A stretch of DNA of 64,000 bases. It comes from Ascidiella aspersa. Lineage: Eukaryota. The position numbers were made by a program, and so were the translations under genes. The DNA is taken from assembly GCA_963924565.1 (NCBI GenBank), contig OZ004608.1:25730001-25794000 (forward strand), read 5' to 3'. The notes beneath the pieces were generated by a model. The model worked only from the letters and a program-made list of their open reading frames with translations. It searched no databases and was not told where the DNA came from. Of the stretch, positions 3,562 through 62,652 are shown piece after piece (positions within the stretch are counted from its first letter, which is position 1; each line of letters opens with the position of its first letter).

Positions 3562-6500
3562 GTACGTTTCAATATTTAAAAAGCTCTGCTGTTATTGTAT
3601 TATATTTTTCGTTTGCTAGTAAACAAACGCGACATACTGGATAACGTTAAACTCCGAAATGAATAAAAATAATAGAAGAACTTTTAAATTCGCAACTAAC
3701 CTAACTTTGTATCACTGCAAAGACCCCTATACATAAAACGACAAATATGGACTAATCATATAACTTTTGGTATTTAATATTTCAGAAACAAGCAAGAGCA
3801 ATGCTTTTTCAGGTAAACTTATATTTTTTGTTAAGCTTTAAAAGTATTAAACCTAATTTTGTTTTACCATGTATTAACCTAACTTTGTTTTACCCTGATT
3901 GGTTTAATCGTATACATTTAATCTTTTTAAGGGCCGTTTAATGTCAGTCAGGCCTTTGGGCGATGGCGAACGTTTGACACGACAGGCGGCGTCCCCAACT
4001 ACTTCAATTATACCTACGACGAATCGACGTCGAAAAGCATTTTGAATGGCGGGAAGGGCATGTACGATGGCGGAGGAAATATGGTAATCAATCAAACTTT
4101 AACATGGTTACGGGATAAGCATAAGGGCAAAGAAAATGCAAACTTACGCCCCCGAAGAAGCAAGCATATGCGTATGTTACCGTTATTGGGGTAAGGGAAG
4201 TAAAATGGGTTTCAACAAGAACAAAATTGTCTTTCCTTTTTAGTATATATATATATTTTATGTTCGGCTAATAGTAAACGAGTTATGTTCAGTGACACCA
4301 TAGCATTTAATAACAATTTTCCTTGTAGTACGCGGCCTTTCAACGTTGTAATACTTCGCTGTCAGATTAATACTTTAAACGCTCTTTGGATTGCAGAAAA
4401 CTAAGAAAATCGAAAAACCTTCATGCAATTCCACCCTCCCTGCAATACAATAATATCGTAGGTAGTATATCATAACTTATACCATAACTTGACAATCGTC
4501 CCTAATACACGACAGGGCAATAGGTTAATACAGAAGTTCAACATTTTTGTTCAACAATGTGCGTTTTAATCTGCAATGCTTGTCTACAAAGCTGTAATAA
4601 TACAAATAGTTATTTTTCAAATAACAAAACGTTGCGCGGAAAAACATCTCCCGAGGCACACAATTGGTGTGGCGCAGCACACAGCTTGAGAATCACTGCT
4701 TTAACGGGCTTGCTAATTGCTGTTTCAGATACGCTTTATCGTAAATGGAACGCCAACCAACGTCGTGTACAGTGAAACCTACGAGTAAGTAACATGTTTT
4801 GCACTGGGTGTTGTCTTTTCACTTTTATAAAAATACGCAAGTAAATGGTTAATCACACCACTGTGTGGTGTCTGGCCCAATAAAAACTTTAATACCACAC
4901 TTTGATTTAAAAATAACTGCCATAAAAAAACAAGTGATTTACAGCTTCGTTTAAATACGTTCTGAAAAGTTTACTTTTAAAAGTTAGCATTCAAAAAGTC
5001 ATCATAAAAGCTTTTTCTGATGACGTTGCACTTATGTGATAATGGAAATCACCTTGACCCTTGCAAGATAAAAGTTCATAACTCCTGATCAGTAATAGCA
5101 GAAAATGACGTTTTCAACTTTCGCCAGAAAATCCTCCCACGTGTTCTCGTCTTCGAAAACGTACCCGTTTCTCTTTGGTGGCTGGATATCTTCGATCAGC
5201 AACAGCAAGTTTGTGATTGAGGTATAAAGCTTGCGGTATTAGTCGACTCTTTTCCTCGCCAACCGTTTGGGAATGTTTCGTTCTGCTTGAGAATAACTTA
5301 ATTAATTTTCATTCCCATATTAAAAAATGGTTTTGTCCAGTGGCCAATTATGAATAAACAGACACTAGAGTAGCCTATATTAGTTCACACTAGAGGTGTC
5401 CGTAAATTTTATTTCGTTACCGGTATTACGTATAGCAGGGGTCGGCAACCTTTATTGCACTGCGGACCGGTTTTAAATCTGAAATTTTGTTACGGACCGG
5501 CTTTCAAAAAAATATCTGTTCAGTAAAAGAAATTTATTACAATTTTTTTCAATGCGATCTTTAAACTTGTTTTGCCGCAACATGATGCTCGTTTCTAGGA
5601 ATTATTAAACTTAATGAAACCCACGTGCGTTTTTTTTTCGGCCCGTCAAGCAATTAAACCCAGGCCGCGGCTCATTTCAAGCCGCTTTTATAGGCCTTAA
5701 AATGTTGTATTGAATAAGTTACACTTGTTGGCTATACCATTATCACCTATCCCAACTCTTACCAGCTTGTCAGAAAAAGGATAATTAAAGCATTCATTTA
5801 AATTTTAAAATAAGTCACACATTTCGGATCTATTTTTTGTACAGGCCCCAAACGACACTTTTTGTTTCCATAGCAGACGAAACGACTAAATACTTATAGT
5901 GACAATACAAAAAACGTATATGAACCACAGACTGACACCTGAAAAGTATAGAATAGACATTCGTACAAGACTTGCCAGATTGTTTACACCAAATTTAAAA
6001 AAATCTGGCTTTTTCAACGGGGTTGATGTCACAAAATTCATTCAGCATTTTGGCTTTTTTCTATCCTTTTTATAGAGGTTTGCTAAAGCTAATTAAAATA
6101 CATACATGTTTTTCGAAACCTTTTCTGCTTAAATATCAAAATAATAAATCATTTCATTATGTGACATTGTTTATAAATATTGTTTGCATGAATTTATTCT
6201 ATTTCACTTGAACATCAAAAACATGATATTTTAGCCCATTTTTCGATGTATTGTCATGAGGAGATTTTGCAATAAAAATATGCATTTTTGGATGCAACTC
6301 ATATGGCCACAGCACACTTGTTTTGAACCTCACGCGAGCTAATTGTTATTTTTCATCATACCAAACAATCATGAAGTATATTTAAACGAAAGTTAATGTA
6401 TTTGGAATATAAAAATACAGTTAATTGTTTTTTTACTTGTCCGGCTTTTTATGCACAGTTCGGGTTTAAATCAAAGTTTTGATTTGGCAACCCTGCTACG

Positions 6501-9500: not shown

Positions 9501-12500
9501 AACACATAGTATATTTTGTAGCCTGTCTTGCTTGCACTACAATTCGGATTGAGCCGCCTGCTTTCTGCAAGCCTTGCTGAAGGCATCTGGCGTACTCATG
9601 TATATATAGGTTTGCATGCTGAAATACACCCATTTTACCAACGCTAAAAATGTTATTATTTTATCAATTTTCACATCAATACATCACACAGGAATCGAAA
9701 GCAGTGGCGTTGATATGTTCGGTATGTAATTGTGTTAACTTACTAAAACACTCACCGATAAATACGAATGTTACTAGAAAAGTACTTTTATTAATTTCAG
9801 GACCAACAGTATTTTATTCTAATACCGCTTTTCATTACTTGGGTTAAAACGTATTTTGACTTAACCAAGCCAAAAATTAATCTCGTACGCCTTATATGTG
9901 CCAAATTATCAGCTTTTGATGATCGTTAAAATTTGTGAAACAATTAACCCAAACTAACCAAAAACAAATATATATACATAATTATAATTACTTATGGTTT
10001 TGATTACTAGTTAAGCGCGCGGTCAAAATTTGTTTTAACCAAAAATATATTGTAGTCAAATGGGAATGTTACGAACTGCAAAAACAACAGGGTTTTCGGT
10101 CCGATAATATTGCACTTTACTGTTCTTCCCACTGTACATTTAACTATTTACATGATTTCATAAGAAAAAAATTGTAACAATTCTAATAAGCGCTGTTATC
10201 CCCCTAATATTTTGTTGATAGATTTCGAAAATTTCGAAGATTTCGATCTTCCTCAGCCTGATTTGGACTCCATAGCAAACTTTTACGGTAATTGACGTCA
10301 TTTTGATGTTGTGCTCGTATTTGACGTGATTCTGTCATGTTAGGCTATCATTCACAAAAAGTGGCCAGCCGGTTAGATCAGGCCTGCAGGTTTCGATTCT
10401 AAGTCTGCAAAAACTTTAATGATTTCGATTATAAGGTTGTATTTGTTTTAAATGGAAAAGATTGTCAGATGGCAAACTACGAAAAATTTAAATAAATTTT
10501 AAGCTCAGCATATTAATTTTAAGTGTTTTTTTCGTTTTATTGGGTCACATAAGGTCACTACAAATTCTTGAGTTCGTCCCTTGAGTTCGGGACACGATCC
10601 TTTAAACACATTGTATGGATGAAATTGACTTTGTGTTCTCGAGCAAGAAATTTATTGTAGTGCGACAGTCAGTAAATACGGCAAGGGCAAATGCACACCA
10701 AGTTCTCGCATTATTAAAGTGAGTTGGCGGGAAGCCGAACTGAAGCAACTTTTTCGCTGCCAACACATCGCTCCATAATTCAGCTCAAAAGAGCTGCGAC
10801 AATTGAATTTCTGCCATCTCCTAACTGTAGAGTTATCCAGCCCGCGAACATAGAATTCTACGGCTCCCAACATTTTTGGTGACCCCCTACTCTACATGAC
10901 TCATAAAGTATTATAAAACAGTTTAGATTATCTTATTCAACTTTTTTCCACATTTTTTCTTCTATTAACCGTTATACTTTATACTTTGTTTTTGATGTAC
11001 AACAATTGAAGTTAGACTGTCGTTTTTTCAGAAACTACAGCGGATTTGATTCCGGCATCCACAACAAACGCGTTGTCATCTTCACCAAGAGCAGGTCAGG
11101 TTTCAACGAAAAGTTAACATCTCACTTTACAATCATCCCTAAATAATGTATATCGTTATTCAGCGTTACAACAGTAAACTAAACCATTCATTAAAACGTG
11201 GCTTCTTGACATATCATATTTGCTTGCCACGCAGGCCACAGATGGTTTACGTTAATTTAATTTTATAGAAACCAACGCTGCTGCGCGACTTCGTCAATTC
11301 TTGCTGAAGCACTCTGAAAATATCAGTAGCTCAGTGGCGGACTTTTACAAATACAGATACGACCAACTGTCAAATGTTCCCCCAGACAGACAGAATATGA
11401 CCCAGATTAATGACGGAGGCCGCGACATGTACGATGGTGGCAACCGGGTAAACTTTAACCAGTGTTGTAAAAAAGTTTATTTAAAATGGCTGAAGTCTCA
11501 GTCAAGTTATGTGTAAAATAACTTAGGTCCAAGTCAAGTATTTTTAATTAGTGACAAGTCGAGTCCCAGTCCAAGTCATCAGTTGCGCAAGTCAAGTCTC
11601 CGTCATGTCAGAATAAAAGCAAGTCAACTTCAAGTCACGTCCTTTAAGACTATAGTACGATTTTGAACAATAAATGAACTGAAAAATAAGAAAAACGCAA
11701 CATATAGCAAGCAATTTGTTTTATGTGCAAACATTTGGATAAATATCTTAATTATATAAAAAAAAAATCATTAAAGAAAACACTTCATTTCAAGTCAAGT
11801 CATTGTGCCTAAAAGTCAATTCATTTAAAAACAGTGACTTAAGTAATTACAACACTGCGTATAATTATATATGTTATAGAAACATTTAATAAAATCTTAT
11901 AAAATATTTCGCTACCAAACGCCAGCTAGTAATAACAGTTTATTTAGCTATTTTTTGATCAACCGTTTTATAAATAATCTTGGTAGTTATATCGGGCTTT
12001 CCGCAATACTAAGCAAAATGAAAAAAATACAAGAAGTATTCACAACGCGTGAATAACAAACTGGAACAACGTTTAAAAATGGAAACATCTCTGGCATAAA
12101 GAAATCCTTTTTGAAAGAGATTAGAATATGCTAAGCTTAAATAAATATGCATAACGGCCCTGGAAGCTGCTTGGTTTCCAATAAAAAACGACAATTTTTA
12201 ACTCTAACACCTTTACCTCTAATTACATTTTAAAGGTCCGATTTTCTGTTGGGTACAACGAAACATTGGCAATTTATAATCACAACTACACGTAAGTAAA
12301 TTGTTTGTAGATAACAATTGGTCTTTTTTGCTTAACGCATTCTTCGGTATTTTCCCGATACCACCCGGTTCGATTTGTTTTAGACGCTTGTAGCGCTCAA
12401 GTTAGGATCGGGGCTTTGAAGCGTCTGTGTTAAAACGTGTTAGAAATTTTACGCTTCATGCGGACTGTGTTACAACTGGATACAAGTGAACAGCGCATGC

Positions 12501-15500
12501 GCGGACTAATCATCCATAACGAAACGTTGCCAAGCCATACAGACTACAATTTTGTTATCCTACAGTTCTGTATATTATAAATGTTTACAATTTTACCTAG
12601 TTAATAGCAGGTTTTTATTGTTTCTAAAGCATTGGTAATTCAGCATAAGTAAAATTACTTTGGAAATGGCTTTGTTTTTCGGCTAAGGAAATGTATTTAA
12701 TTATACACGTTGTCTGTAGCCTACTGCTGAATAATGCTGTTCCTGATTATCATTTTTCATACTAAATTTGAGCGCTACAAGCGTTTAAAACAAATCGACA
12801 CGGTGCCCATACAATATATAACTCAAACAGAAAGAGAATAGCTGTTAAAAATATTCTTACATTTTAGCAGGTAAACTTTGTTATGGTTTCGACACAATTA
12901 GTTTTGTCGCATTTTTATATGAGTCTAAAAACAGGATGGTGCTGTTTTTACCAACAATATTTTCCATGGAGAGCATTTCTGTGGTAAACGTTTGTTGTAT
13001 TTACAGCGGAGACGGATACACTTTTACTTCGCTTGTTGGTTACCCTTTCATTTCCTTCTTCTTTATCGAATCCAAGAAGCAGCAAGAAGCAGCCAATAAT
13101 AACTACACTATATCGGTAAAGCACTTAAAGGGTGACATTTAGTATAGTGGACATTTTTCTTGTGTAATCTTGTTAACTAAAAAATCCATGAATAAGATTG
13201 CGGTTGCGATGTATATAGATTTTATGTTGTACAAAACTATTTGGCTCTTGTAATACGAAAAATATGTCGTTTTTTTGTAACTTAACTCGTGCTGTGATGT
13301 GCAAGAGTTTTTTAAGTATAACATTATTGCAGGTTGAATCTAATCTGGGAGCGGACGGTGGAGGATCTTATGCTTTCTTCTCAACTGCGCTTGACAAACC
13401 GTCATCCGTGACTTACAAGAATTACACAATTGAGTTCGAGGGAATCCAGGTTTTCGGATCAGAAGATGCGACGGTGTGCGAGGTTTTCTTTGAGGTCAAC
13501 TTATCGCCGGTTAGTCACGAGTTGCATAAATAACAGCTTCTACAAATGTCGAAAATAGTAATCTTCTATATAAAGGCTCTTACAATGTTTAATCTAGAGG
13601 AATCAGATGGACCTACTTTGACCTGATGAAGCACGGTTGTGCGAAAGCTTGGCGATAACTCAATACAATTTGTCTTCATACAGTGCCACCGTATTCCTCT
13701 AATTAGAAATAGACAAATACGGCTATTTACAAAGAATGTTGAATCTGTGATTCCTTTATTCTGTTAATTTAAAACATTTCCGCGACTTTTAGATGGTGTT
13801 AAATAACTTTTTCTATTTTCTGCTACTGCACGCAATGCAAGGTATAGCTTGAAAGTGATCTTTGTTTTGCAGTAATTTTGGTTTTCATATACCGAAAGTC
13901 CAAAATGGTGTAAATAGTAATTTAACACTTTATGTAAAACTGATATAAAGACATACTCGCGATCCCTTAACGCAAGCTAAAACAGGGTCTATAATATCAC
14001 TTTAGGAAGCTCTGACATATATAGTGATTACAACTTTTGTAGTTGTCAAATGACACAAATTGTAATTTTATAGTTCAGTAGTAGTAAATTACCGTAAGAT
14101 GTTGGTTGCCGTTTATACTTCTGATCATTGTATCCCACTTTTAGGCGCATGTTTTAAAGCAACAAATTGTACTTGTTATAGGTAAAAATGTATAATTTGA
14201 GTTTCCAAGCACTATCTAAAACAACCCGTGAAATGAACAATAAGGCATTCCTTGAAGGTCAAGTGAAAAACGCCGTGTTTGGATTCGTGTTGCTGTCGAA
14301 GTAAGACTGTAATGTTCATTCTATCATGTATGACATAATTAGATCTTCCAACTATTAAACAAAACTATGCTTATCATTTACATCGAATGTTCAACTTTTA
14401 GTGGCCATTATAAAACATAATTTAAAAAATAATTCCATTTGATTTAAGTTACTTGGTATAGGTAAAAATTCTTAGAGGCCTGCAGCAGACAATCAACCTT
14501 AAAATTATTTTCTGCACAAATGTTTAAAAATGTTAGTCAAACTGTTATTAAACCCCGCTTCTTTATTGTGAGCCTTTGATATACTCAACAAAGATAATGT
14601 TTGTATAGTTATCCTTCCCGAAGAATTTCGATGACTGAGTTACAAAATGCAATGAAAAACCTCCTTAAGACTATCGTCGAATCTGTAGAATTTGTTCCAG
14701 GTAAGAAAAATAAATTACCTGCTGACGAACACGTCACAATACTATATTAGAATTGACAACAGCATGACATATAGGATTCCACCACCAGCTAGTATGATGA
14801 AGTTAACTGTTATATCGTATGACGTACGTGAGCATTGGGATTTTTGACTTACTAAATATAGATCAATGAAACTAATCAACGGACACGCCGTCGAGAAAGT
14901 TGCACAGTTACTTCAAAGTGCTATGCTGATATGCTTTGTAAAATGTAATCTCGCTGATAGAGTTTGCTTTCTACTCGTTGTACTGTCATCCTTGTCAAAA
15001 GTTCAGTGATTCTGTTCAATGAAGAGTATTCCACACACAAAGATTCCAACAGTTAAAAGTGATTGCGCCTAAAAAATTTTATTTAACAACCAATGTGACC
15101 TCGTGATCATAAATATTGTCTTCCTTACATTGAAAAACCATTGCACGACCCTGTTCTGGAGTAAACCGCTATAGTGTTTGGCAATTTCGTTCAATAAAAT
15201 ATTCGTGATTTTTGCATCAATTTTGGCTTTGAAATGACTTGTTTGTTAAAATTGTTTTACATAACAGCTAACTGATATGTATGTTATATTTTGTCTGATT
15301 TCTACTCTCTTTTAAAAATTACTTATCAACGTAACAGTTGTGCAAGCCACGTCCGCCGCATCGACGACCTCCTCAACCTTCTTGTCGTCCAGCCGGACAG
15401 ATACAACATCACCAAGTTATGTGCTAACATCACCAAATAACGTACCTGTGTCATTGAGTAATGTACCTGTGTCTCCGAGCAGTACTGGTTCAATCATACA

Positions 15501-48500: not shown

Positions 48501-51500
48501 AAGGCGTATTTAAATTTGTCAAATTCCTGTTCTGTCTTAAGTTTACAATCACGCTGATGTGTTCAGGTTAGGCGCGGTTTTGTTGTTCATACTTAATTCA
48601 CAACAAAACTGGTCAAAAAATTAGAAAACGTATAAACATCCAATGGGAACATATACCCCAGAGGGGACATATACGGCATGGAAAAATAAGCAAATACATT
48701 TCCTCAAATAATTCCGCATTTCAACATCTTGAGTTTCGGTGATGAAGCTAATGCACAACGGCACATGAGGGGCTTCGTAGCAACCCCTAAAGAGGTTATT
48801 TCGGACATACGAAGTATATGAGTTACAAATTTATTCATTTTTCTAAAAAAAAGCCTTGTTTTACTACACAGTAGTCCTATATATCGATTTAAAATTCCAA
48901 ATGATTTTTTAGTATTAAAAAAAGTGTGGCCACTAACTTAGAAACAAATGTGGTCTGCCAGTTGACAAAGTTTGAGAATCGCTGTGTTAACCATTAATTC
49001 ATAACTGATCGTCAACACGGAAGTGTAGGCCTTGTGCCCTAAAGTAACTAATTCCTGTCAAAAGTAACTAATTCCTGTTAAACTACGTAAATTGACATTA
49101 ACTTTGGTTCGTGTCGCAATTCTTTTTAGTTTTTTCACTTTTCTTCAATGTAAGGTATGTGTGTTTTATGTGAGGTCTGTATATCTTCCGAGTTAAAAAG
49201 TTGTCTTTTTAAACTCAATAAAACGCTGGTTTGAAAACACTACCTTAATCCAATCCTGATAGCTAATGCGGTATCATTTGACATCAATTCAATAATGCTA
49301 TTTTCTTAAAAATGGATTAATTAAAATTGTGTTCACATTTTCTTTTGTTAAGATATTCTTAGACCATTTATATTTTTAAACGTTGGTAAACTAAATGACT
49401 TTTTTAGTACCGGCAATCTTAAAAATATCGATGCTATTATTTTGTTCAACTATATAACGTTTAAAAGATAATAAGCGTACACGTATTAACATAAATATGT
49501 TAATAAGTGGGGGTGTGGCCTTTAAAATAAAGCCATGTCAAGAATCTTGTCAAAGATTTGCTTTTGCTTTTAGAATTTAGACAGAACCTTTACGGTTAGT
49601 ACCCCCATTCGTAACAGAGAGCGGATGGCAAATAAGGCGTCCGTACAGTCAGGTGGAGGTGAAGCTGTGCTCGGATACACGCTCTTGTCGAAGTAAGCTT
49701 CGTAAATTAATAAAATTTAAAAACAAATATCATCGATTTTGGTAAAAATTGTTTGACATTTTAAAGCAGTGGTTCTTCACCGGAGGGGCGCGCCCCCTAG
49801 CTCTAATTCAATATTTAACTTTATGTAGTGATTTTAATGGTTTCGTTTGGGGTTTATTCTGTTTTTATAATGTCCTATACTTAAAAGTGACAGACGAAAT
49901 TGTTTATGGATTTGCGATTTGCGAGCTTCGCTAGTAATTTGTAAGTTGTGAACATGGGCTGGACACTTGGGTAAGTTGTGAACACGCAATCTAAGTTGTT
50001 TAATTGGGTTGGCCACTACTACTACGTCTCTACAAACTTTGTTTTTTGCCCTACTTTAACATTAAAACTGCAAAAACGTTTCGCGCTACCGGTAGGCCTA
50101 CGCGCAAATGATTTATTTTGTTTTTGTTCTGTTTCGTTGACAACTTTTTTTGAACACAAAGTCTCTGCAAGTACCATTGTATGTTTTTTCGAAGATATAA
50201 TGTTCATCGAAGATATAACGGCCCTATTCGAATTACAGTTTGGCTAACTCATAAATAAACCATAAAAGTTATACCCTTTTTCAACTATTTTATGCTATCA
50301 GGCTAGAAATACTGAGATACGAACCTTTTTTTAGCTAATTCACCTAATTAAACTAAAAAAATTTTACCGAATTGGTTTTCGTAGGGGGGCGCTAAGCACA
50401 GGACAATTACCAAAGGGCCGCGGTTCAATACAGGTTAAGAACCACTCTTTCAAAATGTTTAAGAGCGAAAGCTAAGCTCCTAACTGCTATATTAAACTAA
50501 TTGATATTTATTTTATTTTGGGTAATGTTTCTCTGATGCCAATAAAGCTGCATAACTAGAGAATAACATTATAACCGTTAAGGCAATAATTAAAAACCTT
50601 CATTTCACAATCTCCTGGTTGTTGGGCACATTGCAGACCTTCCGGTAAAAGAATTTCGAGTGCTGAATTAAACGCGACAATGTTTACGATGATGCAGATT
50701 ATTTTGACAGGTCAATCAGGTATGCTTCGTTTTTTATACTTCAAGAATTTTTGTCATAAATGTTACATTTTTCGGTGCAATTTACCTCATGCATTTCAAT
50801 ACACGAATTAGATTCTTTAGAGACAATGGTGACTACGAATACAACGATGGTGACTACGAATACAAGTACGACACCAACAGGTATTTTACTGTACTAAAAG
50901 CAGCAAATCTATATTTATTTTTCTTAAATAAGGCATAGATTCAAAAGAAACATTTAAAAAGACAAATAAGTTAAATTATTTTTGACAGTCCTGTGTTCCG
51001 ACCAAAGTGCGATCGCTCTCAGCTTAATCCTTAATGTGTGAACACGTTTATAGTGTGAACAATAAACATGATTGCCTAACAGTTGTTTTAATTGACTACA
51101 CTTAAATACAAAGCTATGTTCCAAAACTTAAATTGCTGATAACGTCATCTTTTACATATTTTGATATTAATCTTTGTTTTTTTGATCGATGATTTTATTT
51201 CACGATTTCGTTATTTTTTTTAAAACAGCTTCTTCAACATCTTCGACGGCATTTGTAACAAAAACAACTCGAGGGCCCCCTACAGGTATGTTATTTAAAA
51301 GTATGTTTGCTGAAAAGCAACACACATTCTTAATATCCAACATCAATTTTCTCCGTACAAAAAACTTTGTTAAAACTGGAAAAGTAACAACATCGACAAA
51401 TCGTTCGCATAACTTATTTTTCAGTTGCTACATCTGAGCTTATCGCAATGCTGCAAGCAAACTCAAGAAACATCACAAATAATATCCCAGACTTTCATCG

Positions 51501-54500
51501 TTACACATATACTACTGGAAGTTCAGTAAACTCCATTTCGGACGGTGGTGGAGATATGTATGATGGTGGTAACAATGTAAGTCACACGAACGCAAAATTA
51601 AACTTTGTTTTGCATACATGCTTTCTTAACGCCTTGTTTTCTGTTCAATAATACATTTTTAATATCACCGCTTTTAAACTCCTGGTCTTAAGTTTTACTG
51701 GCGACAATTTTTTTTAAGGTATATTACGCCGCTGGAAAACTATCCAAACAAAGGGCGGTTTATAACAGAACTATCAGGTAAGTGCGATCAACCTAAATAA
51801 TTAAACTCGCATTATGCTTGTTTATAAAAAAACGAGTTATTCTATATTTAAAAAATTAAAAAAGCGTAGTTTCGCAGGGTAAGTTCTCTTATCACGCTCT
51901 AAACGTCAAACTGTGCATTATTGTGTCTTAAATTCGCTTTCTTTCAATACTCAACCTGTAAGAAAAACTATATATAGCTGGAAATTTTGTTTTGTTTTAG
52001 ACGTGACACATTTACGTTTACCACGCTGAACATGTACCCATTCATGGCAATGTTTGTCCTTGATCCCAACCCAACTGTACAAAATTATTCAATCCAGGTA
52101 AGCAAAAAAATGTTTGTAAATATATATTTTGAACAAGTCATTCTGTAGCTGTCAAAATCGGATATGCTCACCTCACTTTACACATAACTACAGCTAGATA
52201 AGTGTCTGGTATTTGTCCCGGTTTCACAACTACGTGATTTGCTGTAAATTATGGTCAAGTGCGTACTTTCCAAGTTCACTAATTTTATTTGGACACTTAT
52301 TCAACGAAGGTTCTTTTTAAACTGAGATAAATTAATCAAAATCAAGTTAAATAACCCGTTCTAAAAACACGGTGCTCTGCTTAATTTACTTTTGAAACGA
52401 GGCAATCTACTAAATATGTAAAATTGTAATGCATATACGCCAAATAAATTTTTAAAAAGATTTATTTCGTAACTTTTCAGGTCGAGTCAAACCTGGGAGC
52501 AGATGGAAATGGCGTTTTTGAAAGGTTTAATGGTACAGTTTCATTTCAAAACTACACGTTAGAGTTTCGTGTGGCGCAAGTTCATTCGGCTGGAGACCCG
52601 TCAGTTTGCGAAGTTTACTTTTTTATGCCCTTAAATTCGGTAAGTTATTCCGTTGAATGTAATTTATACTTGCGGATTGTAATTTATGGTTTAGGACTTG
52701 AATATGTTTTATTGGTCAGCCAACTTTTTTTGAAAAGTTGACATCATTTTTTCGTTTTAACGTAGCCTAATGCTTTTACGTAGCCTAATGCAAGTAAAAT
52801 TAAAAATCGTTTTATATATTTTTCTTTGTTTATAGGCAGCAAACATTAAACACCATTTTGTAAAGTTATAGTTATTGTTCGTTGAAAATTCTCAAATAAT
52901 ATTTACTACCTTTTACAGCTTTATTACTGATATATAAATTTACAATATGTTTTCGGATTGTTGATTCTTAGAGTTCAGAATATACGCTAGACTTGGAAAC
53001 GCCCATTCGGAACACCCAAAGTTTTGCAAATAACGCTTCCGTTCAAACGTCGGGTGGAAAAGCTGTGTTCGGATACATTTTGTTATCCAAGTAAAGTTTT
53101 AGGCATAAAGCATATGTGTTAATAGCATTTTTTTGTACGAAAATGTTTATCGCATTGTTTCGTTCTATGGATAAGGTGATTGTTTTCGTAATGATCAATT
53201 TGAATTTTTGGAATTTGGGTATGCAACTATTTTTTTAATAATTAACAATTTTTCAAGAAACGAATTTAATTCAACGCCTGTAATATCTACGCAGAGCTTC
53301 CGGGCAAAAAGTTACTAAGCAAGAAATCAGTGATACTTTGTATACTGTGATGCATATTATCCTAGGAGTGCAACAGACAACAGGTATAGATGTTTAACTC
53401 GTAGATTGGTGTTAAACCTATTTTAGTTATATCTCCTAACGTGAATAGAATATTTTTTAACTTGAAGTTGTTTTACTTAAGAACTTTATAATGTGACCAC
53501 ATCATCACCCATTCAACCAACATCATCTAGTAAAGGTTGGTGTATTGTTATGGAAACCAATTTAGGAGACTTTTAAGATTTTGCTTTTGAGTTTTTGGAT
53601 TTAGTAAACTATATCTAGCTTATTATAACAGATAAGCAAAGAAAGATATCGTTTTTTATAACCCTGTGTGCTACAATTTATGACATATTTTATGATGTAA
53701 ACTTTTATGTGTTAAATTTACAAAAAAATAATGCTGTGTCGTCGACTGTAATACGATTAAAGAATTAACAATTAGCGCGCAACATTGCATTATTTCGTCA
53801 TCTTTAAACATAATTTTTATATTGATCATGTATTCCATTTAAAACATTTGCCTTTATCAAAACTCTTCTTTCTTGATGAATTGATTTTACGATTTCGTTC
53901 TTGTTTTTAAACAGCTTCTTCAACGTCTTCGACGGCATTTGTAACAAAAACAACTCGAGGGCCCCCTACAGGTATATTGTTAAAAAGCATGTTTGCTAGG
54001 TGTATTCCTATGGAACTAATTTAGGAGCTTAAACAAGAATTTGTTTTTGATTTTGTAGATTCAGTAAATTAAATCTAGCTTATTATAACAGGAAAGCAAA
54101 GTAATATATCGTTTTCTTATATACATATTTCCGCTACAATCTATGAAATACTTTAAGCTGCAATCTTTATTCTGCTAAATCGACTTTGTTACGATTAAAG
54201 AATTAACGATGAGTCTTTAAAATATACTTTCGACTTTGTGGTCTGAGTCAAAATCAGTGTCATTGTCGTCATTAACTTGCATAAGGGCGAGGAGATATTT
54301 TATTTTTACATATTCACTGATTTTGACTCAGACAACAAAGTCGAAAGTATACTGATTTTGACTCAGACAACAAAGTCTAAAGTATACTGATTTTTACTCA
54401 GACAACAAAGTCGAAAGTATACTGATTTTGACTCAGACAACAAAGTCGAAAGTATACTGATTTTTACTCAGACAACAAAGTCGAAAGTATACTGATTTTG

Positions 54501-57500
54501 ACTCAGACAACAAAGTCTAAAGTATACTGATTTTGACTCAGACAACAAAGTCGAAAGTATACTGATTTTGACTCAGACAACAAAGTCGAAAGTATACTGA
54601 TTTTGACTCAGACAACAAAGTCCTGATTTTGACTCAGACAACAAAGTCGAAAGTATACTGATTTTGACTCAGACAACAAAGTCGAAAGTATATTGCTAAC
54701 ATTCGAAGTCATTGTCGTCATTGACGTGCTTTAGGGCGAGGAGATATCTTCTTTTTACATATTCACTGATTTTTACTCAGACAACAAAGTCTAAAGTATA
54801 CTGATTTTGACTCAGACAACAAAGTCGAAAGTATACTGATTTTGACACAGACAACAAAGTCGAAAATATATTGCTAACATTCGAAGTCATTGTCGTCATT
54901 GACGTGCTTTAGGGCGAGGAGATATCTTCTTTTTACATATTCAGTTTGCATGAGTCTTTAAAAGTGAGCATTTTCAACACATGTTTAGATGAGATAATCG
55001 TTGAAGTTTTACACTAACGTCTAACTCCTAAGTGAATGTATTCAACTGAATTGTACTCTTTTATGTAGTGACCACAGCGATTTCAATTTCCTCGATCGAC
55101 TTGCCGTTCGATCCAGACAACGTTACAGGTCTGTAACAGAAACACTTTTATTTTTACTTGAAATATAGAAACATTGCTAAACCCTTTAGAAAGTTCTCAA
55201 TAATGTTTACTTAATGTATTTGAGCAAGTTTACCCAAACTTATTTCAAACTAATTTCCACGCCTATTTATTGTCTGTGTTGCGTAGGGTCCGTTTGGAAT
55301 GCAATTGCCAATCAGAGCGCGACGCTGTTGTCAAATATACCTCAAGGTTTTTACTATTACAAATACGACGGAGGAAGATACTACATAAACGATGGTGGTG
55401 ACGATATGTACGACGCGGGAAATCGAGTAAGAGATATAAAAATCATACTGTATAAACAATTCCAATGTCACGTTTATATAACGACATCCAGAGTAAATTC
55501 AAATAGACCTAATAGAGCCATAGGCACCAGCAAAAGGCGGTAAGATGTTTCCAAAGGCACATGCTCGCAAAAGCTTGGTCGTGGACTGACGCAACAACAA
55601 GCTTAACGGGAATCCAGCTTTAATGGCCTCGGGTTTTCCGTTATTCTTTGTTAGAATATGAGCCTCTCTTGTGTGCCGTTCTTCAGTTTTTTAATCACCG
55701 AAACTCGAAGGTATTTAGCTTGTGGAATCGTTTGTTGGATTGTGCGTCAACAGTGTGTCAACGTTTTATGTTACAGTTGTCTTCAGTTAGGCTTTTTCTT
55801 ATGGGCCGGTTTGCCAACAGAAATTGCTTGGTTACATTACGTTTTGATTAAATAGCCCTTTTAAATCCTTTTGTCCTTTCAGGTTGAATTGGGAATAGCA
55901 GGGAACTTTACAGATTACCTCAAGTACAACTCGACAAATGTGTAAGAAAACTAAGAGTTGCGAATAATCGCAATAAAATAAATTTCGATTTTTCAAATTC
56001 GCACACATTCTAACATTTTTTTAATTTTCTTTATAGAAGCGACAATTACCAAGTTGGCGTATACGCCGGTTATCCCTTTACCACCTTGGTATGGATTGAC
56101 CCTCAAGACGACGAGATATACAATTACTCAATTCGGGTAAGGCTGGGCGTTTTGTGAATAATTAGACCCAACCAAAAGATCAAAGACAAGAAAAAATTTG
56201 GTTCAAAAATGAATAAATAAAAAAATTGGGTTTTTACATGATCTTAATATTCCTTTACTTTAAATTGCAAAATTGATATGTAACGCGACAGTAAGTCAAA
56301 ATGATATTTTAAGCGTGCCTTTTTTTTTATACTTAACGTTTGCATTGAAACAACTGTGTAGAATAATGGTAGGTTACTTTAAATGGCTATACTTTACATT
56401 CGAAGTTTATATTGATGCCCACAATCGAATTTAACATTATATTATTTTAATTCTCTGTTACGCATAATCTCGACTAACCCTACTGTTTTGATTGAATAAC
56501 TATTTAAAAAACAAACTATATATAAAGCTAATTAGCATGTTTACTTTGTTTAATACGGAGGTTAAAACGTAAATGTAGAGAACTTTACGTCACATACCAT
56601 TTTTTGCTGTAAAAAAGTACAGGCACGTTAAGCCTAAGGAATTTTTCGCTGAAACAATATTAATCGTTGAAAGTTTACCACCAGTCACCACGAAAGGTAC
56701 ATTTTTAACAAGGTGTCGGGAAATGCTGGTTCTGACGGTGGCGGAAGCCCGGAAATTTTCAAAGGAAGTGTGTCCGAAGGTACGACCACCGTCCACTACC
56801 ACGTGTTCCAAATTAGTGGTGCCGACGACCCTTTAATCTGTGAAGTCTATTTTGTTGTTTCTGATGAGGTGGGTACCTTTAAAATACAATATTTTGAGAT
56901 TTAAATAGAAATGTGGGCTTATATTAAATGGTATACCTAATTGCCTATGACTACTCAAGATAATCATTTTTCATAAAATTTTTGGTAACGGTCATTGTTT
57001 ATCGGTTATAGATCTTAAGATTCCAAAAGCCGTCACAAAATAACGTCTTGTTTAAACAATATACGCGTAAAAGACATTAGAACATAACACAGTATACGTT
57101 CGCAGACGAACGGTAATAAGTGCTGACAAGTCTGCATCACAATGATTTGTAAATAAATAAAAGTGCCGACAAATCATCCTTTCTTGATAAAATAATTTTG
57201 TAGATTTGTTTCGTTTTGTTGTGACAACACGACATAAGTTAGCAACACTGTATAAGGCAGGGGTTCCCAACCTTGTTTACACCGTGGGCTCCTTTAAAAA
57301 TTTTGAGAAATCAATGGCCCCCCTATTTTTTCAACCTTTTGAAAAAATTAAGAAACGTTATTTTAATTAAAAAAATTGGTTTATGCAGAAACCGTTCGAA
57401 TGATAAAATGATATTTATACCACACACAGTAATCATGATAGTACATTAAGTTATTAGTTTTATTAGGCTACATATTCAGTTGATGTGTTGGTTGAGCTTG

Positions 57501-60500
57501 TTTTTGCTCTGCCAATTTCTAAATTGCTGGTTTAGTGGTGGAAAGAGCCAGCAGCATGTCATATTGAATATCCTAGACACTGCACTGCTTTGTCTTCAAA
57601 TGTAACATTGTTGAAAAGCGGTAGTGGGATTCAAATTTCAGCCGGTTCGATCACAAAAATCACATTTTTCAGCCGGTTCTGTCACAAAAAGTCATCTTTT
57701 CCGGGAAATAATTAAAGTAGTTGCAAGAACAGGCTGCAACCCCAGGTTCCAGCGAATGTTGCGAACTGCGAACAGGCTGAATCCCATAAGCAACAGTAGT
57801 CTTCTCATTATGCAACAATTCAATTTTTCGAAAAAATTCACAAGAAAATTACTACAATTATAAAAAGTGATCACAATGGATGACTGATACGTAAGAACCT
57901 GTCCATTGCTCATTTTGAAGAAAAAAACACGTGAGCTACTTCGATTTCAAAAATCGGTGTATCAGATAAGAGATGCAAAAACCATTGACAGTAACCAGTA
58001 ATGCTGCTAACTTTGCATAGTTTTGCCCAAAATGTGGTCAAACCATATCTTTCTCAAAGCGAACTGGGTTGCCGTCTTTTTTGCGGCTTCAAGTGTTCAT
58101 TAAATTTGATTTATTTCTTTTGTGATTGTGGAGTAGACTTAGAGATAATAAACAAAACTTTTTTGTTTTCAAATTTTTTCATGGCCCCCTTAAAAAAGGC
58201 TCATGGCCCCTTGGGGGCCCACAGGTTGGGAACCTCTGGTATAAGGTGTATCGTTTCAGTTGCAAATATATTAATTGTATGTTAAACAGTGTAAAACAAT
58301 TGAAAAAATAAAACAAAACGTCGCGTTCACATCCGGGGACGTCAACCGCAGGTCTCGGTTTAAAGTTGTATTCTTTGTTTTTCAAACTAGAGTTATGAAC
58401 AGGGCAATATAATTACCAAAGACGTTGCTGTTGTTGCTAGACTATCAGAGCTAATTCTACTTACTTATACGCTAAAGTTTCCAATTAATTAGCTTGACTG
58501 CAAAATAGTAACTTTTTAACGCAAATCAGCTTCAGCTAATTTACCTCCATTTTGTGTTGAAACCTATTTAGAGATGGGGTTCATCAAATATTTTCGAGTT
58601 CAAAAAAGTTCGGTTTGACACAAGTCTCAATAATCTTAATAGCAGCGTTAGATTGGTAAGCAACCATCAAAGTGTCATGATGGGATATACACTACTTTCC
58701 TAGTAAGTATAACTATTTTATTTACACTAAAAAATATTATTTTTGTTATGCCGTTTGTACTACAAAAAAGTATTGTTTTTTAAAACGTTGTTCTTGGCCA
58801 ACACCATCCGTCAACATTTACGCTACGTTTTGCACCCGTTTTCCAGATTTAACTATGGTTTTACACAGTTTACCATGTTACTGTTGTCCAAATTATACTT
58901 CTTTAGATTTATATTTTAAGGCATTGCGACCAAAATGCGTTGCTTTTTGAAGTTGTGGTTTTACTTATATGAATATATACTACCCTATATTAGTAAAAAT
59001 TTGCAATTCTGTCAACCAGACCCAAATTAATATTTTTATCAAAACACTTATACAATGTTAACCCTAAAATTCTATCAAATTAAATATTTTTGCAAAAACA
59101 TAAAATACCGGTACTGAATTACATGATTGACTTTTATGAGCTAAACTCTTGATGATACGTTTTTCAGTCCGGAAGATGCTTCAAGGTTTGCCATATCGGA
59201 GGCTGCCATACGGAATTTCCTTATAGATCTGGGAAGAATTATTTCAACAACAATTGGTAAGAAGCATGCACATTGCATACCCATATGTGTGTTAACCATT
59301 GTGATCTAGCCCTTCTGGAGTTGCTTATTGACCAACGATTGCGGCTTTCGAATTATTAATACACCGAAATCCATCGCACACCCACGGAATCTGTCGGCCA
59401 ATGATGTAAGTTCAGTTTGTAGAGCAACGGTACTAGTGTAACCGGAGGTCGTAAGTTCGAACCTCTCTGCAGGCTAGTTGTTTTCTAGCATGACCTGCTT
59501 GCAACATTGGTCGACAGATTCGGTGAGTCTGCGATGGCTTTCGATTTATAATTGGTAAAATTTCGATTGGTGTTGTACCTATTTTAGTTATATCTCCTAA
59601 CGTGAATAGAATATTTTTTAACTTGAAGTTGTTTTACTTTAGAACTTAATAATATGACCACATCATCTCCCATTCAACCAACATCATCTAGTAAAGGTTG
59701 GTGTATTGTTATGGAAACCAATTTAGGAGACTTTTAAGATTTTGCTTTTGGGTTTTTGGATTTAGTAAACTATATCTAGCTTATTATAACAGAAAAGCAA
59801 AGTAAGATATCGTTTTTTATAACTCTGTGGCTACAATTTATGACATATTTTATGATGTAAACTTTTATGTGTTAAATTTACAAAAAAATAATGCTGTGTC
59901 TTCGACTGTAATACAATTAAAGAATTAACAATTAGCGCGCAACATTGCATTATTTCGTCATCTTTAAACATAATTTTTATATTGATCATGTATTCAATTT
60001 AAAATATTTGCCTTTATCAAAACTCTTCTTTCTTGATGAATTGATTTCACGATTTTCTTGTTTTTAAACAGCTTCTTCAACATCTTCGACGGCATTTGTA
60101 ACAAAAACAACTCGAGGGCCCCCTACAGGTATATTGTTAAAAAGTATGTTTGCTAGGTGTATTCCTATGGAACTAATTTAGGAGCTTAAACAAGAATTTG
60201 TTTTTGATTTTGTAGATTCAGTAAATTAAATCTAGCTTATTATAACAGGAATGCAAAGTAATATATCGTTTTCTTATATACATATTTCCGCTACAATCTA
60301 TGAAATACTTTAAGCTGCAATCTTTATTCTGCTAAATCGACTTTGTTACGATTAAAGAATTAACGATGAGTCTTTAAAATATAGACTTTCGACTTTGTGG
60401 TCTGAGTCAAAATCAGTGTCATTGTCGCCATTGACTTGCATAAGGGCGAGGAGATATTTTATTTTTACATATTCACTGCTTTTGACTCAGACAACAAAGT

Positions 60501-62652
60501 CGAAAGTATACTGATTTTTACTCAGACAACAAAGTCGAAAGTATACTGATTTTGACTCAGACAACAAAGTCGAAAGTATACTGATTTTGACTCAGACAAC
60601 AAATCGAAAGTATACTGATTTTGACTCAGACAACAAAGTCGAAAATATATTGCTAACATTCGAAGTCATTGTCGTCATTGACGTGCTTTAGGGCGAGGAG
60701 ATATCTTCTTTTTACATATTCAGTTTGCTTGAGTCTTTAAAAGTGAGCATTTTCAACACATATTTAGATGAGATAATCGTTGAAGTTTTACACTAACGTC
60801 TAACTTCTAGGTGAATGTATTCACTGAATTGTACTCTTTTATGTAGTGACCACAGCGATTTCAATTTCCTCGATCGACTTGCCGTTCGATCCAGACAACG
60901 TTACAGGTCTGTAACAGAAACACTTTTATTTTTACTTGAAATATAGAAACATTGCTAAACCCTTTAGAAAGTTCTCAATAATGTTTACTTAATATATTTG
61001 AGCAAGTTTACCCAAACTTATGTCAAACTAATTTCCACGCCTATTTATTGTCTGTGTTGCGTAGGGTCCGTTTGGAATGCAATTGCCAATCAGAGCGCGA
61101 CGCTGTTGTCAAATATACCTCAAGGTTTTTACTATTACAAATACGACGGAGGAAGATACTACATAAACGATGGTGGTGACGATATGTACGACGTGGGAAA
61201 TCGAGTAAGAGATATAAAAATCATACTGTATAAACAATTCCAATGTCACGTTTATATAACGACATCCAGAGTAAATTCAAATAGACCTAATAGAGCCATA
61301 GGCACCAGCAAAAGGCGGTAAGATATTTCCAAAGGCACATGCTCGCAAAAGCTTGGTCGTGGACTGACGCAACAACAAGCTTAACGGGAATCCAGCTTTA
61401 ATGGCCTCGGGTTTTTCCGTTATTCTTTGTTAGAATATGAGCCTCTCTTGTGTGCCGTTCTTCAGTTTTTTAATCACCGAAACTCGAAGGTATTTAGGTT
61501 GTGGAATCGTTTGTTGGATTGTGCGTCAACAGTGTGTCAACGTTTTATGTTACAGTTGTCTTCAGTTAGGCTTTTTCTTATGGGCCGGTTTGCCAACAGA
61601 AATTGCTTGGTTACATTACGTTTTGATTAAATAGCCCTTTTAAATCCTTTTGTCCTTTCAGGTTGAATTGGGAATAGCAGGGAACTTTACAGATTACCTC
61701 AAGTACAACTCGACAAATGTGTAAGAAAACTAAGAGTTGCGAATAATCGCAATAAAATAAATTTCGATTTTTCAAATTCGCACACATTCTAACATTTTTT
61801 TAATTTTCTTTATAGAAGCGACAATTACCAAGTTGGCGTATACGCAGGTTATCCCTTTACCACCTTGGTATGGATTGAACCCCAAGACGACGAGATATAC
61901 AATTACTCAATTCGGGTAAGGCTCGGCGTTTTGTGAATAATTCGACCCAACCAAAAGGTCAAAGACAAGAAAAAACTTGGTTCAAAATGAATAAATAAAT
62001 AAATTTGGGTTTTTACATGATCTTAATATTCCTTTACTTTAAATTGCAAAATTGATATGTAACGCGACAGTAAGTCAAAGTGATATTTCAAGCGTACTAT
62101 TTTGTTATTCTTAACGTTTGCATTGAAACAACTGTGTAGAATAATGTATAGGTTACTTTAAATGGCTATACTTTACATTCGAAGTTTATATTGATGCCCA
62201 CAATCGAATTTAACATTATATTATTTTAATTCTCTGTTACGCATAATCTGTTATCGACTAACCCTACTGTTTTGATTGAATAACTATTTAAAAAACAAAC
62301 TATATACAAACCTGATTAGCATGTTTACTTTGTTTAATACGGAGGTTAAAACGTAAATGTAGAGAACTTTACGTCACATACCATTTTTTGCTGTAAAAAA
62401 TTACAGGCACGTTAAGCCTAAGGAATTTTTCGCTGGAACAATATTATTCGTTGAAAGTTTACCACCAGTCACCACGAAAGGTACATTTTTAACAAGGTGT
62501 CGGGAAATGCTGGTTCTGACGGTGGCGGAAGCCCGGAAATTTTCAAAGGAAGTGTGTCCGAAGGTACGACCACCGTCCACTACCACGTGTTCCAAATTAG
62601 TGGTGCCGACGACCCTTTAATCTGTGAAGTCTATTTTGTTGTTTCTGATGAG
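3489..62652 (+). CDS. Giant multi-exon gene (3' end beyond window): secreted or cell-surface glycoprotein with signal peptide, >=12 tandem copies of an unassigned ~220-aa 'DGGxDMYDxGN' domain, Ser/Thr linkers and one mucin-like region
   Basis: About 88 exons bounded by AG/GT (two GC donors) join in consistent phase into about 3,200 codons without a stop. The same six-exon cassette (typically 140/59/97/159/119/86 nt) recurs 12 times with conserved motifs and identical intron phases. N-x-S/T sequons are frequent. Confidence 0.85.
3932..8371 (+). CDS. Domain 1 (divergent copy), six exons
   Basis: Exons 3932-4083 (..SILNGGKGMYDGGGNM), 4729-4784, 5128-5221 (..YPFLFGGW..), 7125-7313 (VSSNFG..PSVCEVFF..), 7416-7534 (..FGYTLLSK), 8271-8371. 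Phases 1-0-2-0-0-2-1. Confidence 0.8.
5436..6560. mobile_element. hAT (Charlie-type) non-autonomous element with a nested element at ~5966-6495
   Basis: TIR caggggtcggcaacc..ggttgccgaccactg with a perfect 8-bp TSD acgtatag. The inner element ends tggcaaccctg. Confidence 0.85.
8739..9049. mobile_element. hAT MITE
   Basis: TIR caggggtggccaac..gttggccacccctg with a degenerate 8-bp TSD gtatagat/gtatgaat. Confidence 0.8.
9108..9497. mobile_element. MITE with 8-bp TSD (hAT-like)
   Basis: cagggcggatc..gatccggccctg with a perfect TSD ctcaacac. Confidence 0.8.
9692..11094 (+). CDS. Linker micro-exons between domains 1 and 2
   Basis: Phase 1-1 exons 9692-9721 (GIESSGVDMF), 10222-10287 (DFENFEDFDLPQPDLDSIANFY) and 11032-11094 (ETTADLIPASTTNALSSSPRA). 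All have AG/GT ends and lengths divisible by 3. Confidence 0.55.
11269..14700 (+). CDS. Domain 2, six exons
   Basis: Exons 11269-11447 (..QINDGGRDMYDGGNR), 12236-12291, 13007-13115, 13333-13509 (VESNLGADGGG..TVCEVFF), 14182-14300 (..FGFVLLS), 14609-14700. Confidence 0.85.
11460..11857. mobile_element. MITE with internal CAAGT repeats
   Basis: TIR cagtgttgtaa..ttacaacactg and repeated tcaagtc motifs. No TSD is recognisable. Confidence 0.6.
12362..12805. mobile_element. MITE with ~45-bp inverted termini
   Basis: tcgatttgttttagacgcttgtagcgctcaa matches ttgagcgctacaagcgtttaaaacaaatcga in inverted orientation. Confidence 0.7.
15338..16261 (+). CDS. Mucin-like Thr/Ser/Ala-rich exon (308 codons)
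   Basis: Corresponds to ORF 15340-16299. Acceptor 'aacag' ends at 15337 and donor G|gtaagt is at 16261/16262, phase 1-1. It has a degenerate 36-nt (12-aa, TSE-containing) repeat and a 180-nt higher-order repeat. Confidence 0.85.
16938..18456 (+). CDS. Domain 3, six exons
   Basis: Exons 16938-17077 (GC donor), 17345-17403, 17498-17594, 17673-17831, 18052-18170, 18371-18456. Followed by linker exon 20900-20935 (DLPWNKALETFT). Confidence 0.88.
19285..19732. mobile_element. hAT MITE, present only in duplication copy 1
   Basis: caggggtgggca..tgcccacccctg with a perfect TSD ttctatgg. The empty site is near 31437 in copy 2. Confidence 0.88.
20044..20302. mobile_element. Fold-back MITE, present only in duplication copy 1
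   Basis: ttcgtcacgctcataaccaaattgcc..ggcaatttggttatgagcgtaatgaa with long inverted arms. Absent at ~31748 in copy 2. Confidence 0.75.
21160..23562 (+). CDS. Domain 4, six exons
   Basis: Exons 21160-21302, 21845-21903, 21980-22076, 22143-22301, 23248-23366, 23477-23562. Followed by linker exon 25937-25972 (EKYTSATKETNT). Confidence 0.88.
24085..25614. mobile_element. Triple-nested hAT MITEs (outer 24085-25614, middle 24470-25577, inner 24582-24878)
   Basis: TSDs ccctaggg/tcctaggg, ctctagtg/ctctagcg and gcttagct/gcttagct, each with CAG-type TIRs. Confidence 0.85.
26158..27621 (+). CDS. Domain 5, six exons
   Basis: Exons 26158-26297, 26490-26548, 26643-26739, 26819-26977, 27293-27411, 27536-27621. 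Followed by linker exon 28051-28098 (VPKTTNATKSTKPRYT). Confidence 0.88.
29037..30551 (+). CDS. Domain 6 (duplicate of domain 3), six exons
   Basis: Exons 29037-29176 (GC donor), 29444-29502, 29597-29693, 29778-29936, 30146-30264, 30466-30551. Linker exon 32558-32596 (DLHTANKALKTFT). Confidence 0.85.
32850..40520 (+). CDS. Domain 7 (duplicate of domain 4), six exons; its fourth internal intron is enlarged by a 5.4-kb transposon
   Basis: Exons 32850-32992, 33409-33467, 33544-33640, 33707-33865, 40206-40324, 40435-40520. Linker exon 42923-42958. Confidence 0.85.
34250..36350 (+). repeat. Degenerate ~138-bp subterminal tandem array (about 15 units) of the CACTA-like element
   Basis: A 'cgtgacgta'-like core recurs at about 34637, 34898, 35041, 35173, 35311, 35553, 35689, 36041 and 36179. 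Confidence 0.75.
37018..37216. mobile_element. Palindromic MITE nested inside the CACTA-like element
   Basis: Imperfect ~90-bp inverted arms (ggcactggtctagaatcctaccaca..tgtggtaggattctagaccagcgcc) flanked by the 8-bp direct repeat caattgca. Confidence 0.8.
38860..39530 (+). repeat. Right subterminal array (82-97-bp units) of the CACTA-like element
   Basis: 'ttacgtaaaaataacgtt'-like motif at about 39020, 39117, 39199, 39282, 39378 and 39460. Confidence 0.75.
41043..42601. mobile_element. Duplicate of the triple-nested hAT MITE cluster
   Basis: Same termini and TSDs as 24085-25614. Confidence 0.85.
43148..44614 (+). CDS. Domain 8 (duplicate of domain 5), six exons
   Basis: Exons 43148-43287, 43483-43541, 43636-43732, 43812-43970, 44286-44404, 44529-44614. 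Linker exon 45044-45091. Confidence 0.85.
45467..50719 (+). CDS. Domain 9, six exons
   Basis: Exons 45467-45606 (..FISDGGGDMYDEGNR), 45750-45808, 45879-45975, 46110-46268, 49574-49692, 50637-50719. Linkers 50821-50880 (ETMVTTNTTMVTTNTSTTPT) and 51229-51285 (ASSTSSTAFVTKTTRGPPT). Confidence 0.87.
46612..46690 (+). mobile_element. Degenerate tRNA-derived SINE-like head
   Basis: taagctcagtctgtgaaacgacggtcccggtttgacccaaagtcgtgagtttgcaccc..gcaggct. Similar to 59400-59475 and to the interrupted copy around 8711-9107. Confidence 0.4.
49767..50447. mobile_element. hAT-type MITE
   Basis: cagtggttcttcacc..ggttaagaaccactc with a degenerate TSD ttttaaag/tttcaaaa. Confidence 0.65.
51425..53383 (+). CDS. 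Domain 10, six exons
   Basis: Exons 51425-51576, 51719-51777, 52001-52097, 52481-52639 (VESNLGADGNG..AGDPSVCEVYFF), 52972-53090, 53295-53383. Linkers 53915-53971 and 55069-55128. Confidence 0.87.
54317..54870 (+). repeat. 35-bp minisatellite (11 units including one truncated, spacer, then 3 units) with an inverted copy at 54223-54257
   Basis: Unit ctgattttgactcagacaacaaagtcgaaagtata, arranged head-to-tail. Confidence 0.95.
55287..59256 (+). CDS. Domain 11 (divergent type), six exons
   Basis: Exons 55287-55426 (..YINDGGDDMYDAGNR), 55883-55941, 56037-56136, 56713-56868 (VSGNAGSDGGG..DPLICEVYF), 58572-58702 (..MGYTLLSY), 59168-59256. Linkers 60072-60128 and 60847-60906. Confidence 0.85.
57258..58238 (-). 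mobile_element. Internally deleted hAT (Charlie/Buster) element retaining a transposase C-terminal remnant
   Basis: TIR caggggttcccaacct..aggttgggaacctctg with a perfect TSD gtataagg. The minus strand at ~57480-57575 reads DIQYDMLLALSTTKPAI*KLAEQKQAQPTH, resembling the Buster/Charlie C-terminus. Confidence 0.8.
59400..59475 (+). mobile_element. tRNA-derived SINE-like head or pseudo-tRNA
   Basis: A-box-like taagttcagtttgtagagc, stem cggtac-tagt-gtaaccg and B-box gttcgaacc. The acceptor stem is not convincing. Confidence 0.55.
60476..60649 (+). repeat. 35-bp minisatellite, 5 units (paralog of the 54317 array)
   Basis: Same unit, with an inverted copy at ~60380-60416. Confidence 0.92.
61065..62652 (+). 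CDS. Domain 12 (duplicate of domain 11), first four exons; remainder beyond window
   Basis: Exons 61065-61204, 61662-61720, 61816-61915, 62497-62652. Confidence 0.82.

Follow-up and report, generated by a model that had tools for sequence, protein, structure and literature searches.

The 64,000-nucleotide stretch of Ascidiella aspersa DNA analysed here (the window) probably contains most of one gene, coding for a surface glycoprotein of around 3,500 residues in which 12 tandem, likely glycan-binding domains, joined by in-order splicing, would form a multivalent stalk. Each domain copy would be encoded by the same six exons (A to F) situated between phase-1 introns, and this cassette is, to judge from its phases, its predicted fold and its insertion into other genes, a true class 1-1 mobile module.

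The gene model was built by placing exons by hand, snapping them to AG/GT and splicing them by script; a self-comparison of the window revealed repeated short coding blocks and two long duplications. The model comprises 88 exons between 3489 and 62652 (9,660 nt, 3,220 codons, no stops), with a signal-like exon followed by a linker and 12 modules, and between zero and three Ser/Thr-rich linkers between successive modules. Its features, all on the + strand, are the following:

3489..3561, +: first coding exon, ending in phase 1, with a predicted signal peptide (by visual inspection, from its hydrophobic N-terminus)
3786..3812, +: linker exon L0, 1-1 (hand-built model)
3932..8371, +: module 1, divergent, grouping in the tree with the first module of the Phallusia protein
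3932-4083, 4729-4784, 5128-5221, +: exons A, B and C of module 1 (hand-built model)
7125-7313, 7416-7534, 8271-8371, +: exons D, E and F of module 1 (hand-built model)
9692..11094, +: three linkers, 1-1 (9692-9721, 10222-10287, 11032-11094; hand-built model, splice scores)
11269..14700, +: module 2, six exons (hand-built model)
15338..16261, +: 924-nt Ser/Thr-rich mucin-like exon, 1-1 (hand-built model)
16938..18456, +: module 3, a mosaic by site comparison with modules 4 and 5
16938-17077 (GC donor), 17345-17403, 17498-17594, +: exons A, B and C of module 3 (hand-built model)
17673-17831, 18052-18170, 18371-18456, +: exons D, E and F of module 3 (hand-built model)
20900..23562, +: linker (20900-20935) and module 4 (21160-23562; hand-built model)
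25937..27621, +: linker (25937-25972) and module 5 (26158-27621; hand-built model)
28411..45404, +: the three-module block 16316-28411 a second time, at 86-97.5% identity depending on the piece, with about double read depth
29037-30551, +: module 6, within the second block copy
32558-32596 and 32850-40520, +: linker, then module 7, within the second block copy
42923-42958 and 43148-44614, +: linker, then module 8, within the second block copy
45467..50719, +: module 9 (hand-built model)
50821..53383, +: two Thr-rich 1-1 linkers (50821-50880, 51229-51285) and module 10 (51425-53383)
53482-53535, 53915-53971, 55069-55128, +: three 1-1 linkers (hand-built model)
55287-59256, +: module 11 (region 53482..59256), grouping in the tree with the last module of a Phallusia protein
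59565..64000, +: repeat of 53404-59566 at 97% identity, with three linkers and module 12
61065-62652, +: exons A to D of module 12, exons 12E and 12F lying just beyond the window end
within 8 kb beyond the window, +: 12E, 12F, a four-exon Cys-rich 1-1 region and a predicted membrane-anchor exon

In the 12-module gene, the membrane anchor, the signal peptide, the linkers and the use of exons are all predicted. The predicted protein carries 76 N-glycosylation sequons, a signal-like first exon and a hydrophobic tail exon. Beyond the window, the Cys-rich region (L001 3838-6500) has four exons with phases 1-2-0-2-1, the second donor being read by eye; it resembles the C-terminal region of the Phallusia and Clavelina homologues, occurs also in unnamed proteins, and is without Pfam match in the homologues scanned. 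The last exon encodes a hydrophobic stretch followed by basic residues, i.e., the predicted anchor, and an exon with an early stop ahead of it could give a secreted form. Between exons C and D of module 1, at about 5435-6565, lies an element that ends in inverted repeats and is flanked by what looks like an 8-bp target-site duplication, repetitive as judged from high read depth, which is presumably akin to a non-autonomous hAT transposon.

Concerning intron phases, an earlier note on this DNA had claimed that the order 1-A-0-B-2-C-0-D-0-E-2-F-1 is invariant, and it is indeed found in all 70 module exons of the window (A to F of modules 1-11, A to D of module 12). Its statement that each linker exon is 1-1 likewise agrees with the hand-built model (17/17, the 924-nt exon among them); the linkers were picked by eye, and 14 of the 17 reach a score of 5 or more at their two splice sites under a matrix derived from this gene itself. 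Phase-1 introns flank the 11 complete modules and, once the adjoining DNA is included, module 12. Within modules 1-11 the stated phase is the sole open phase in 11/11 A, 11/11 E and 10/11 D exons; exons B and C often show open reading in several phases. GC donors occur at exons 3A and 6A, with GC-AG introns beginning at 17078 and 29177. The module phases are identical because all copies descend from one ancestral module by tandem duplication, a common descent that homology and trees suggest. The idea that the invariant internal phases are a design for splicing was rejected, since inheritance through copying suffices and paralogues have the same phases.

These paralogues are numerous: a search of the genome with exon D gave 90 matches, and the fetched C8 regions hold, by profile matches, four genes of six modules and two of around 15. 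When the best splice sites of the C8 paralogues were picked blind to phase, the expected phase was obtained in 646 out of 688 picks, compared with about one third by chance; phase 1 was found at the start of A in 58/60 and at the end of F in 47/56. At remoter loci on C3 and C6, exons A, C, D and E have identical boundaries, apart from some mis-picks. In this lineage the phases are thus constant wherever the domain is encoded and not peculiar to this array. Among the C8 profile matches, 25 of 344 fail the intact-exon test, some by clear frameshifts or stops, some probably being weak or partial. C8:8510000-9010000 carries at least four, probably six, near-identical 6-module genes in both orientations. 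In C8:10010000-10210000 (L008-L028), two inverted paralogues of about 15 modules differ in module order, an out-of-register duplication leaves an orphan A near 10052752 and an orphan F near 10053382, some exons carry frameshifts or stops, and a 74-bp tandem array of around 5 kb lies inside an intron A-B. C6:953000-990000 and C6:20965000-21001000 hold one more gene, with around six modules, plus two genes with a single module each that resemble Phallusia LOC100175507.

The six-exon module encodes one domain of around 215 residues. A profile of exon D retrieved 105 proteins among 1.84 billion representatives, a set that includes unrelated weak rows (e.g., P0014 with an MBG domain), and a whole-module profile aligns over its full length in these proteins. 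Ascidians supply the closest named homologues: 17 of the 30 proteins looked up bear species names, and all 17 are ascidian (Ciona, Phallusia, Clavelina, Styela). The fold was modelled by AlphaFold not on a window module but on the near-stand-alone Phallusia homologue P0082, which leads a 36-sequence alignment and is about 22-31% identical to its alignment partners. The model is a single domain (pLDDT 85.9, pTM 0.86) with an N-terminal helix, an 11-strand beta region and a C-terminal helix. Exon ends mapped onto it by alignment place the first helix and an acidic motif in A and the last helix in F, with the C-D junction inside a strand, such that the six-exon block corresponds to one structural domain in this predicted model; the acidic motif is kept in 55-63 of 63 domains.

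Among solved structures, carbohydrate-active enzymes give the best matches through their beta-supersandwich domains (Z 9.3, rmsd 3.5, 172 aligned residues), a modest likeness, Z values of 8-9 being near background for such models; the top rows of the comparison have Z up to 9.3, TM at most 0.34 and identity at most 10%. Four viral models matched at E < 0.001 (best TM 0.67, 21% identity). Foldseek gave nothing against the PDB at E 0.001 or better, which does not imply a new fold. In Pfam, no family for the module was found in eight single exons (one sub-threshold Sec7 row), in four homologues, or in the top-ranking stretches given for two more sets of 30 and 10 proteins (a weak DUF6540 row, E 0.009, lies below the cut-off). 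The module region was likewise blank in NCBIfam for eight proteins and in PHROGs for seven, a PDB sequence search with the module was blank, and the ESM Atlas offered no usable match (best 0.83). Neither the domain nor ascidian intelectins bearing such an insert are described in the open-literature listings and opening lines of abstracts that were searched. That the domain binds glycans, as its fold, its lectin-type partner domains and the acidic motif would suggest, is nearly as probable as the contrary.

In other proteins, the whole module adjoins CUB, Sushi, VWD/C8/TIL/trypsin, kringle, WSC and fibrinogen-C domains. In the Styela protein P0057, it splits an intelectin (module 295-506, intelectin 107-273 and 545-596), and the same layout is present in proteins of Styela, Clavelina and Ciona savignyi. 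Two intelectin genes of the same genome, at C3:31734000-31742900 (L058-L059) and C3:6812600-6825800 (L060-L061), have all six exons of the module lodged midway in the lectin. In each gene, phase 1 is the top phase-blind pick for the intelectin donor ahead of the module and for the acceptor of exon A, and the phase-1 acceptor of the following intelectin part is the top pick in one gene and the second in the other; five of the six flank sites checked are thus top picks and one a second pick. Candidates for a 2-to-1 exon F are present in both genes. Phase-1 flanks in both are what insertion of a class 1-1 module predicts, and the suggestion that the cassette is suited to domain shuffling is directly supported, the module being a single folded domain by prediction, occurring whole in other architectures, and being bounded by phase-1 introns in two intelectin genes. 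A preference of shuffled exons for 1-1 phases has been described for lancelets (PMC4284660), and symmetric exons are discussed as a source of tandem repeats (PMC3632108).

Within the array, modules 3-5 (block 16316-28411) have a second copy in modules 6-8 (28411-45404), and the stretch 53404-59566 recurs from 59565 onward (modules 11 and 12). All ends of both recent duplications lie in phase-1 introns; whole-module gain that preserves the frame, as the earlier note had proposed, has taken place here. Modules 3-4 show about twice the unique read depth in the DNA data sets X1, X2 and X7 (X7: around 10-13 versus 4-5.5; X1: contig 88 versus 46-57; one X2 bin only about 1.2-fold), and by this low-resolution test in three data sets that duplication is therefore real and shared. 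In the modules 11/12 duplication, two alleles could have been joined in the assembly. It is highly improbable that the assembly has wrongly set two alleles side by side in some stretch of the array: identities of 96-97% are within the allelic spread relative to X2 (as many as 45 differences over 2,207 nt), whereas the doubled depth over modules 3-4 in three data sets and the divergence of the older modules (25-45%) speak against it. In intron D-E of module 7, at approximately 34166-39547, there is a 5.4-kb insertion with an inverted repeat (37009-37223) and two kinds of degenerate tandem array, of 139 bp and 83 bp. A 35-bp minisatellite has 16 units at 54316-54870 and 5 at 60475-60649 in the two copies of the modules 11/12 duplication.

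Module number ranges from 1 to around 15 among paralogues and species, with 12 in this gene and 2-8 per protein in Styela, Clavelina, Ciona and Phallusia. In the tree, modules 1 and 11 pair with the first and last Phallusia modules, and internal modules group by species. The earlier proposal that unequal crossover generates length variants is consistent with the variation among paralogues and species, whereas variation among individuals is unsupported, depth being alike in the three data sets. A length-polymorphic recognition locus, the module number of which would differ among individuals through ongoing unequal crossing-over, is accordingly possible, if rather doubtful. The two recent duplications and the differing module number and order of the paralogues would fit it, as would exon D of modules 3 and 6 (17673-17831, 29778-29936), in which 13/159 sites differ versus 7 in the other five exons together, a possible hot spot of selection or conversion; the similarly doubled depth over modules 3-4 in X1, X2 and X7, at low resolution, is against it.

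Chimeric domains, also foreseen by the earlier note, are represented by one mosaic. In exons A-E, modules 3 and 6 side with module 5 at 91 sites versus 12 with module 4, whereas the respective numbers in exon F are 10 and 15 (Fisher p 1.4e-6, the boundary having been chosen after seeing the data). Module 3 resembles module 5 as far as the middle of F; from there on, the final 40 nt of F and the next intron resemble module 4. These 40 nt match module 4 at 38 positions and module 5 at 27, against a background of around 76%; module 5 as the odd copy instead of module 3 was rejected on account of the match with module 4. As the switch point lies inside exon F, the mosaic points to homologous exchange, in which intron phase is irrelevant.

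Combinatorial splicing, the remaining proposal of the earlier note, finds no backing in the gene or its relatives. Out of 3,828 possible skips, 1,284 (33.5%) leave the frame intact, as expected by chance, and in 708 the module register is retained as well as the frame. Frame-keeping partial skips, e.g., of D alone, would remove core strands of the modelled domain. A phase-blind intron scan of the gene gave four stray candidate places. In the RNA run X8, of which around 6% was read, exon depth was zero, a result that says nothing on expression or splicing. Among annotated isoforms of family members, which are automatic models of two genes, module skipping is absent: the eight RefSeq isoforms of Styela differ solely by Pro/Thr units of 19 and 53 residues, and the four of Clavelina by one residue, by the C-terminal 10 residues or by an alternative start. 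It is very unlikely that the array is a Dscam-like device in which jumps from exon X to a later exon X+1 make many chimeric receptors. The 708 register-keeping skips and the similarity of modules 3-8, sufficient for chimeras to fold, would permit it, but retention of the register is expected of any tandem repeat and frame-keeping overall is at the level given above; moreover, the isoforms of Styela and Clavelina alter linkers, ends or start only, the Phallusia proteins (taken to be transcript-derived) hold complete modules in order, and clusters of mutually exclusive exons of a single type are absent, each type occurring once per module and in order. In-order splicing remains the preferred reading.

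Outside animals, profile searches found homologues in large proteins with subtilase, Ig-like and T9SS sorting domains and in small phage-like proteins, which have the acidic motif, a GADG motif and both helices in common with the module. A motif scan of GTDB gave 116 confirmed stretches, of which 79 loci (L064-L142) were kept, mostly from aquatic Bacteroidota and Verrucomicrobiota and some from cyanobacteria; 70 of the 79 have a match of at least 170 residues at 30 bits or more. A single-sequence fold of the bacterial P0142 (pLDDT 34.7) was left out of the analysis. In a tree of 120 domains (FastTree only, every second of the 70 bacterial loci), bacterial and eukaryote-type domains are on separate long branches with no nesting, such that no direction of transfer is given. 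Tunicate cellulose synthase is a precedent for gene transfer from prokaryotes (PMC3390340). It is conceivable, though on balance unlikely, that a glycan-binding domain of aquatic bacteria or phages reached tunicates by horizontal transfer, gained the phase-1 boundary and five internal introns, became a tunicate-specific shuffled module, and later gave rise to giant arrays and the intelectin insertion; if true, the birth of a class 1-1 module would be caught in one lineage.

Taken together, the 1-1 ends would permit both tandem duplication and, over evolutionary time, drop-in to phase-1 introns of other genes, the latter seen in the sequence of the two intelectin genes; homologous exchange between neighbouring copies would alter module number and make occasional mosaics, as seen in the sequence of module 3. 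Splicing of the mRNA most likely follows exon order, and the Ser/Thr linkers would account for most of the variation, as in the relatives; the protein may form a long, multivalent stalk that binds sugars at a surface or within mucus. Of note is a promiscuous, foldable, presumably extracellular domain, unnamed in the libraries searched, which ascidians have in common with secreted proteins of aquatic Bacteroidota and Verrucomicrobiota and with phage-like proteins, and which is inserted into an innate-immune lectin. It offers a clear-cut and testable example of how a module arises and is inserted by way of introns in a lineage near the vertebrates, and is a candidate for a new sugar-binding fold in ascidian filter feeding, adhesion or microbe recognition.

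Compared with known systems, the gene has with Dscam in common the equal-phase repeated exons in a cell-surface protein (predicted here); Dscam, however, achieves combinatorial splicing via arrays of mutually exclusive exons, whereas here the exon types form an ordered chain. With the galactose-mutarotase-like beta-supersandwich (N-terminal domains, GH94, GH65, GH116 and related; 5h3z_A, 5nz7_A, 7w2t_A), the domain aligns at Z 8.4-9.3 over 172-200 residues, whereas identity is 5-8%, rmsd 3.5-4.8, and the module is smaller with terminal helices, the likeness thus being structural, with homology not established. The tandem domain, Thr-rich linkers and Cys-rich C-terminal region are also those of the uncharacterized LOC104266555-type proteins of Ciona and Phallusia and of Clavelina LOC143469517, and the first and last modules match those of the Phallusia LOC104266555-type protein; the internal modules, however, have expanded independently (to 12 modules in all here), and the present gene has a predicted membrane anchor, whereas the Clavelina LOC143469517 protein is without one. 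The class 1-1 mobile modules of metazoan extracellular proteins in Patthy's scheme (EGF, CUB, Sushi, kringle, Ig) share with the present module the phase-1 introns at both ends, tandem expansion, insertion elsewhere and extracellular partner domains. Most of them consist of one to three exons, whereas this module has six, with five conserved internal introns, and is without a Pfam family; its named animal matches are all ascidian, and homologues occur also in bacteria. The gene is a case of a class 1-1 module with an unnamed domain, the phase symmetry itself being textbook.
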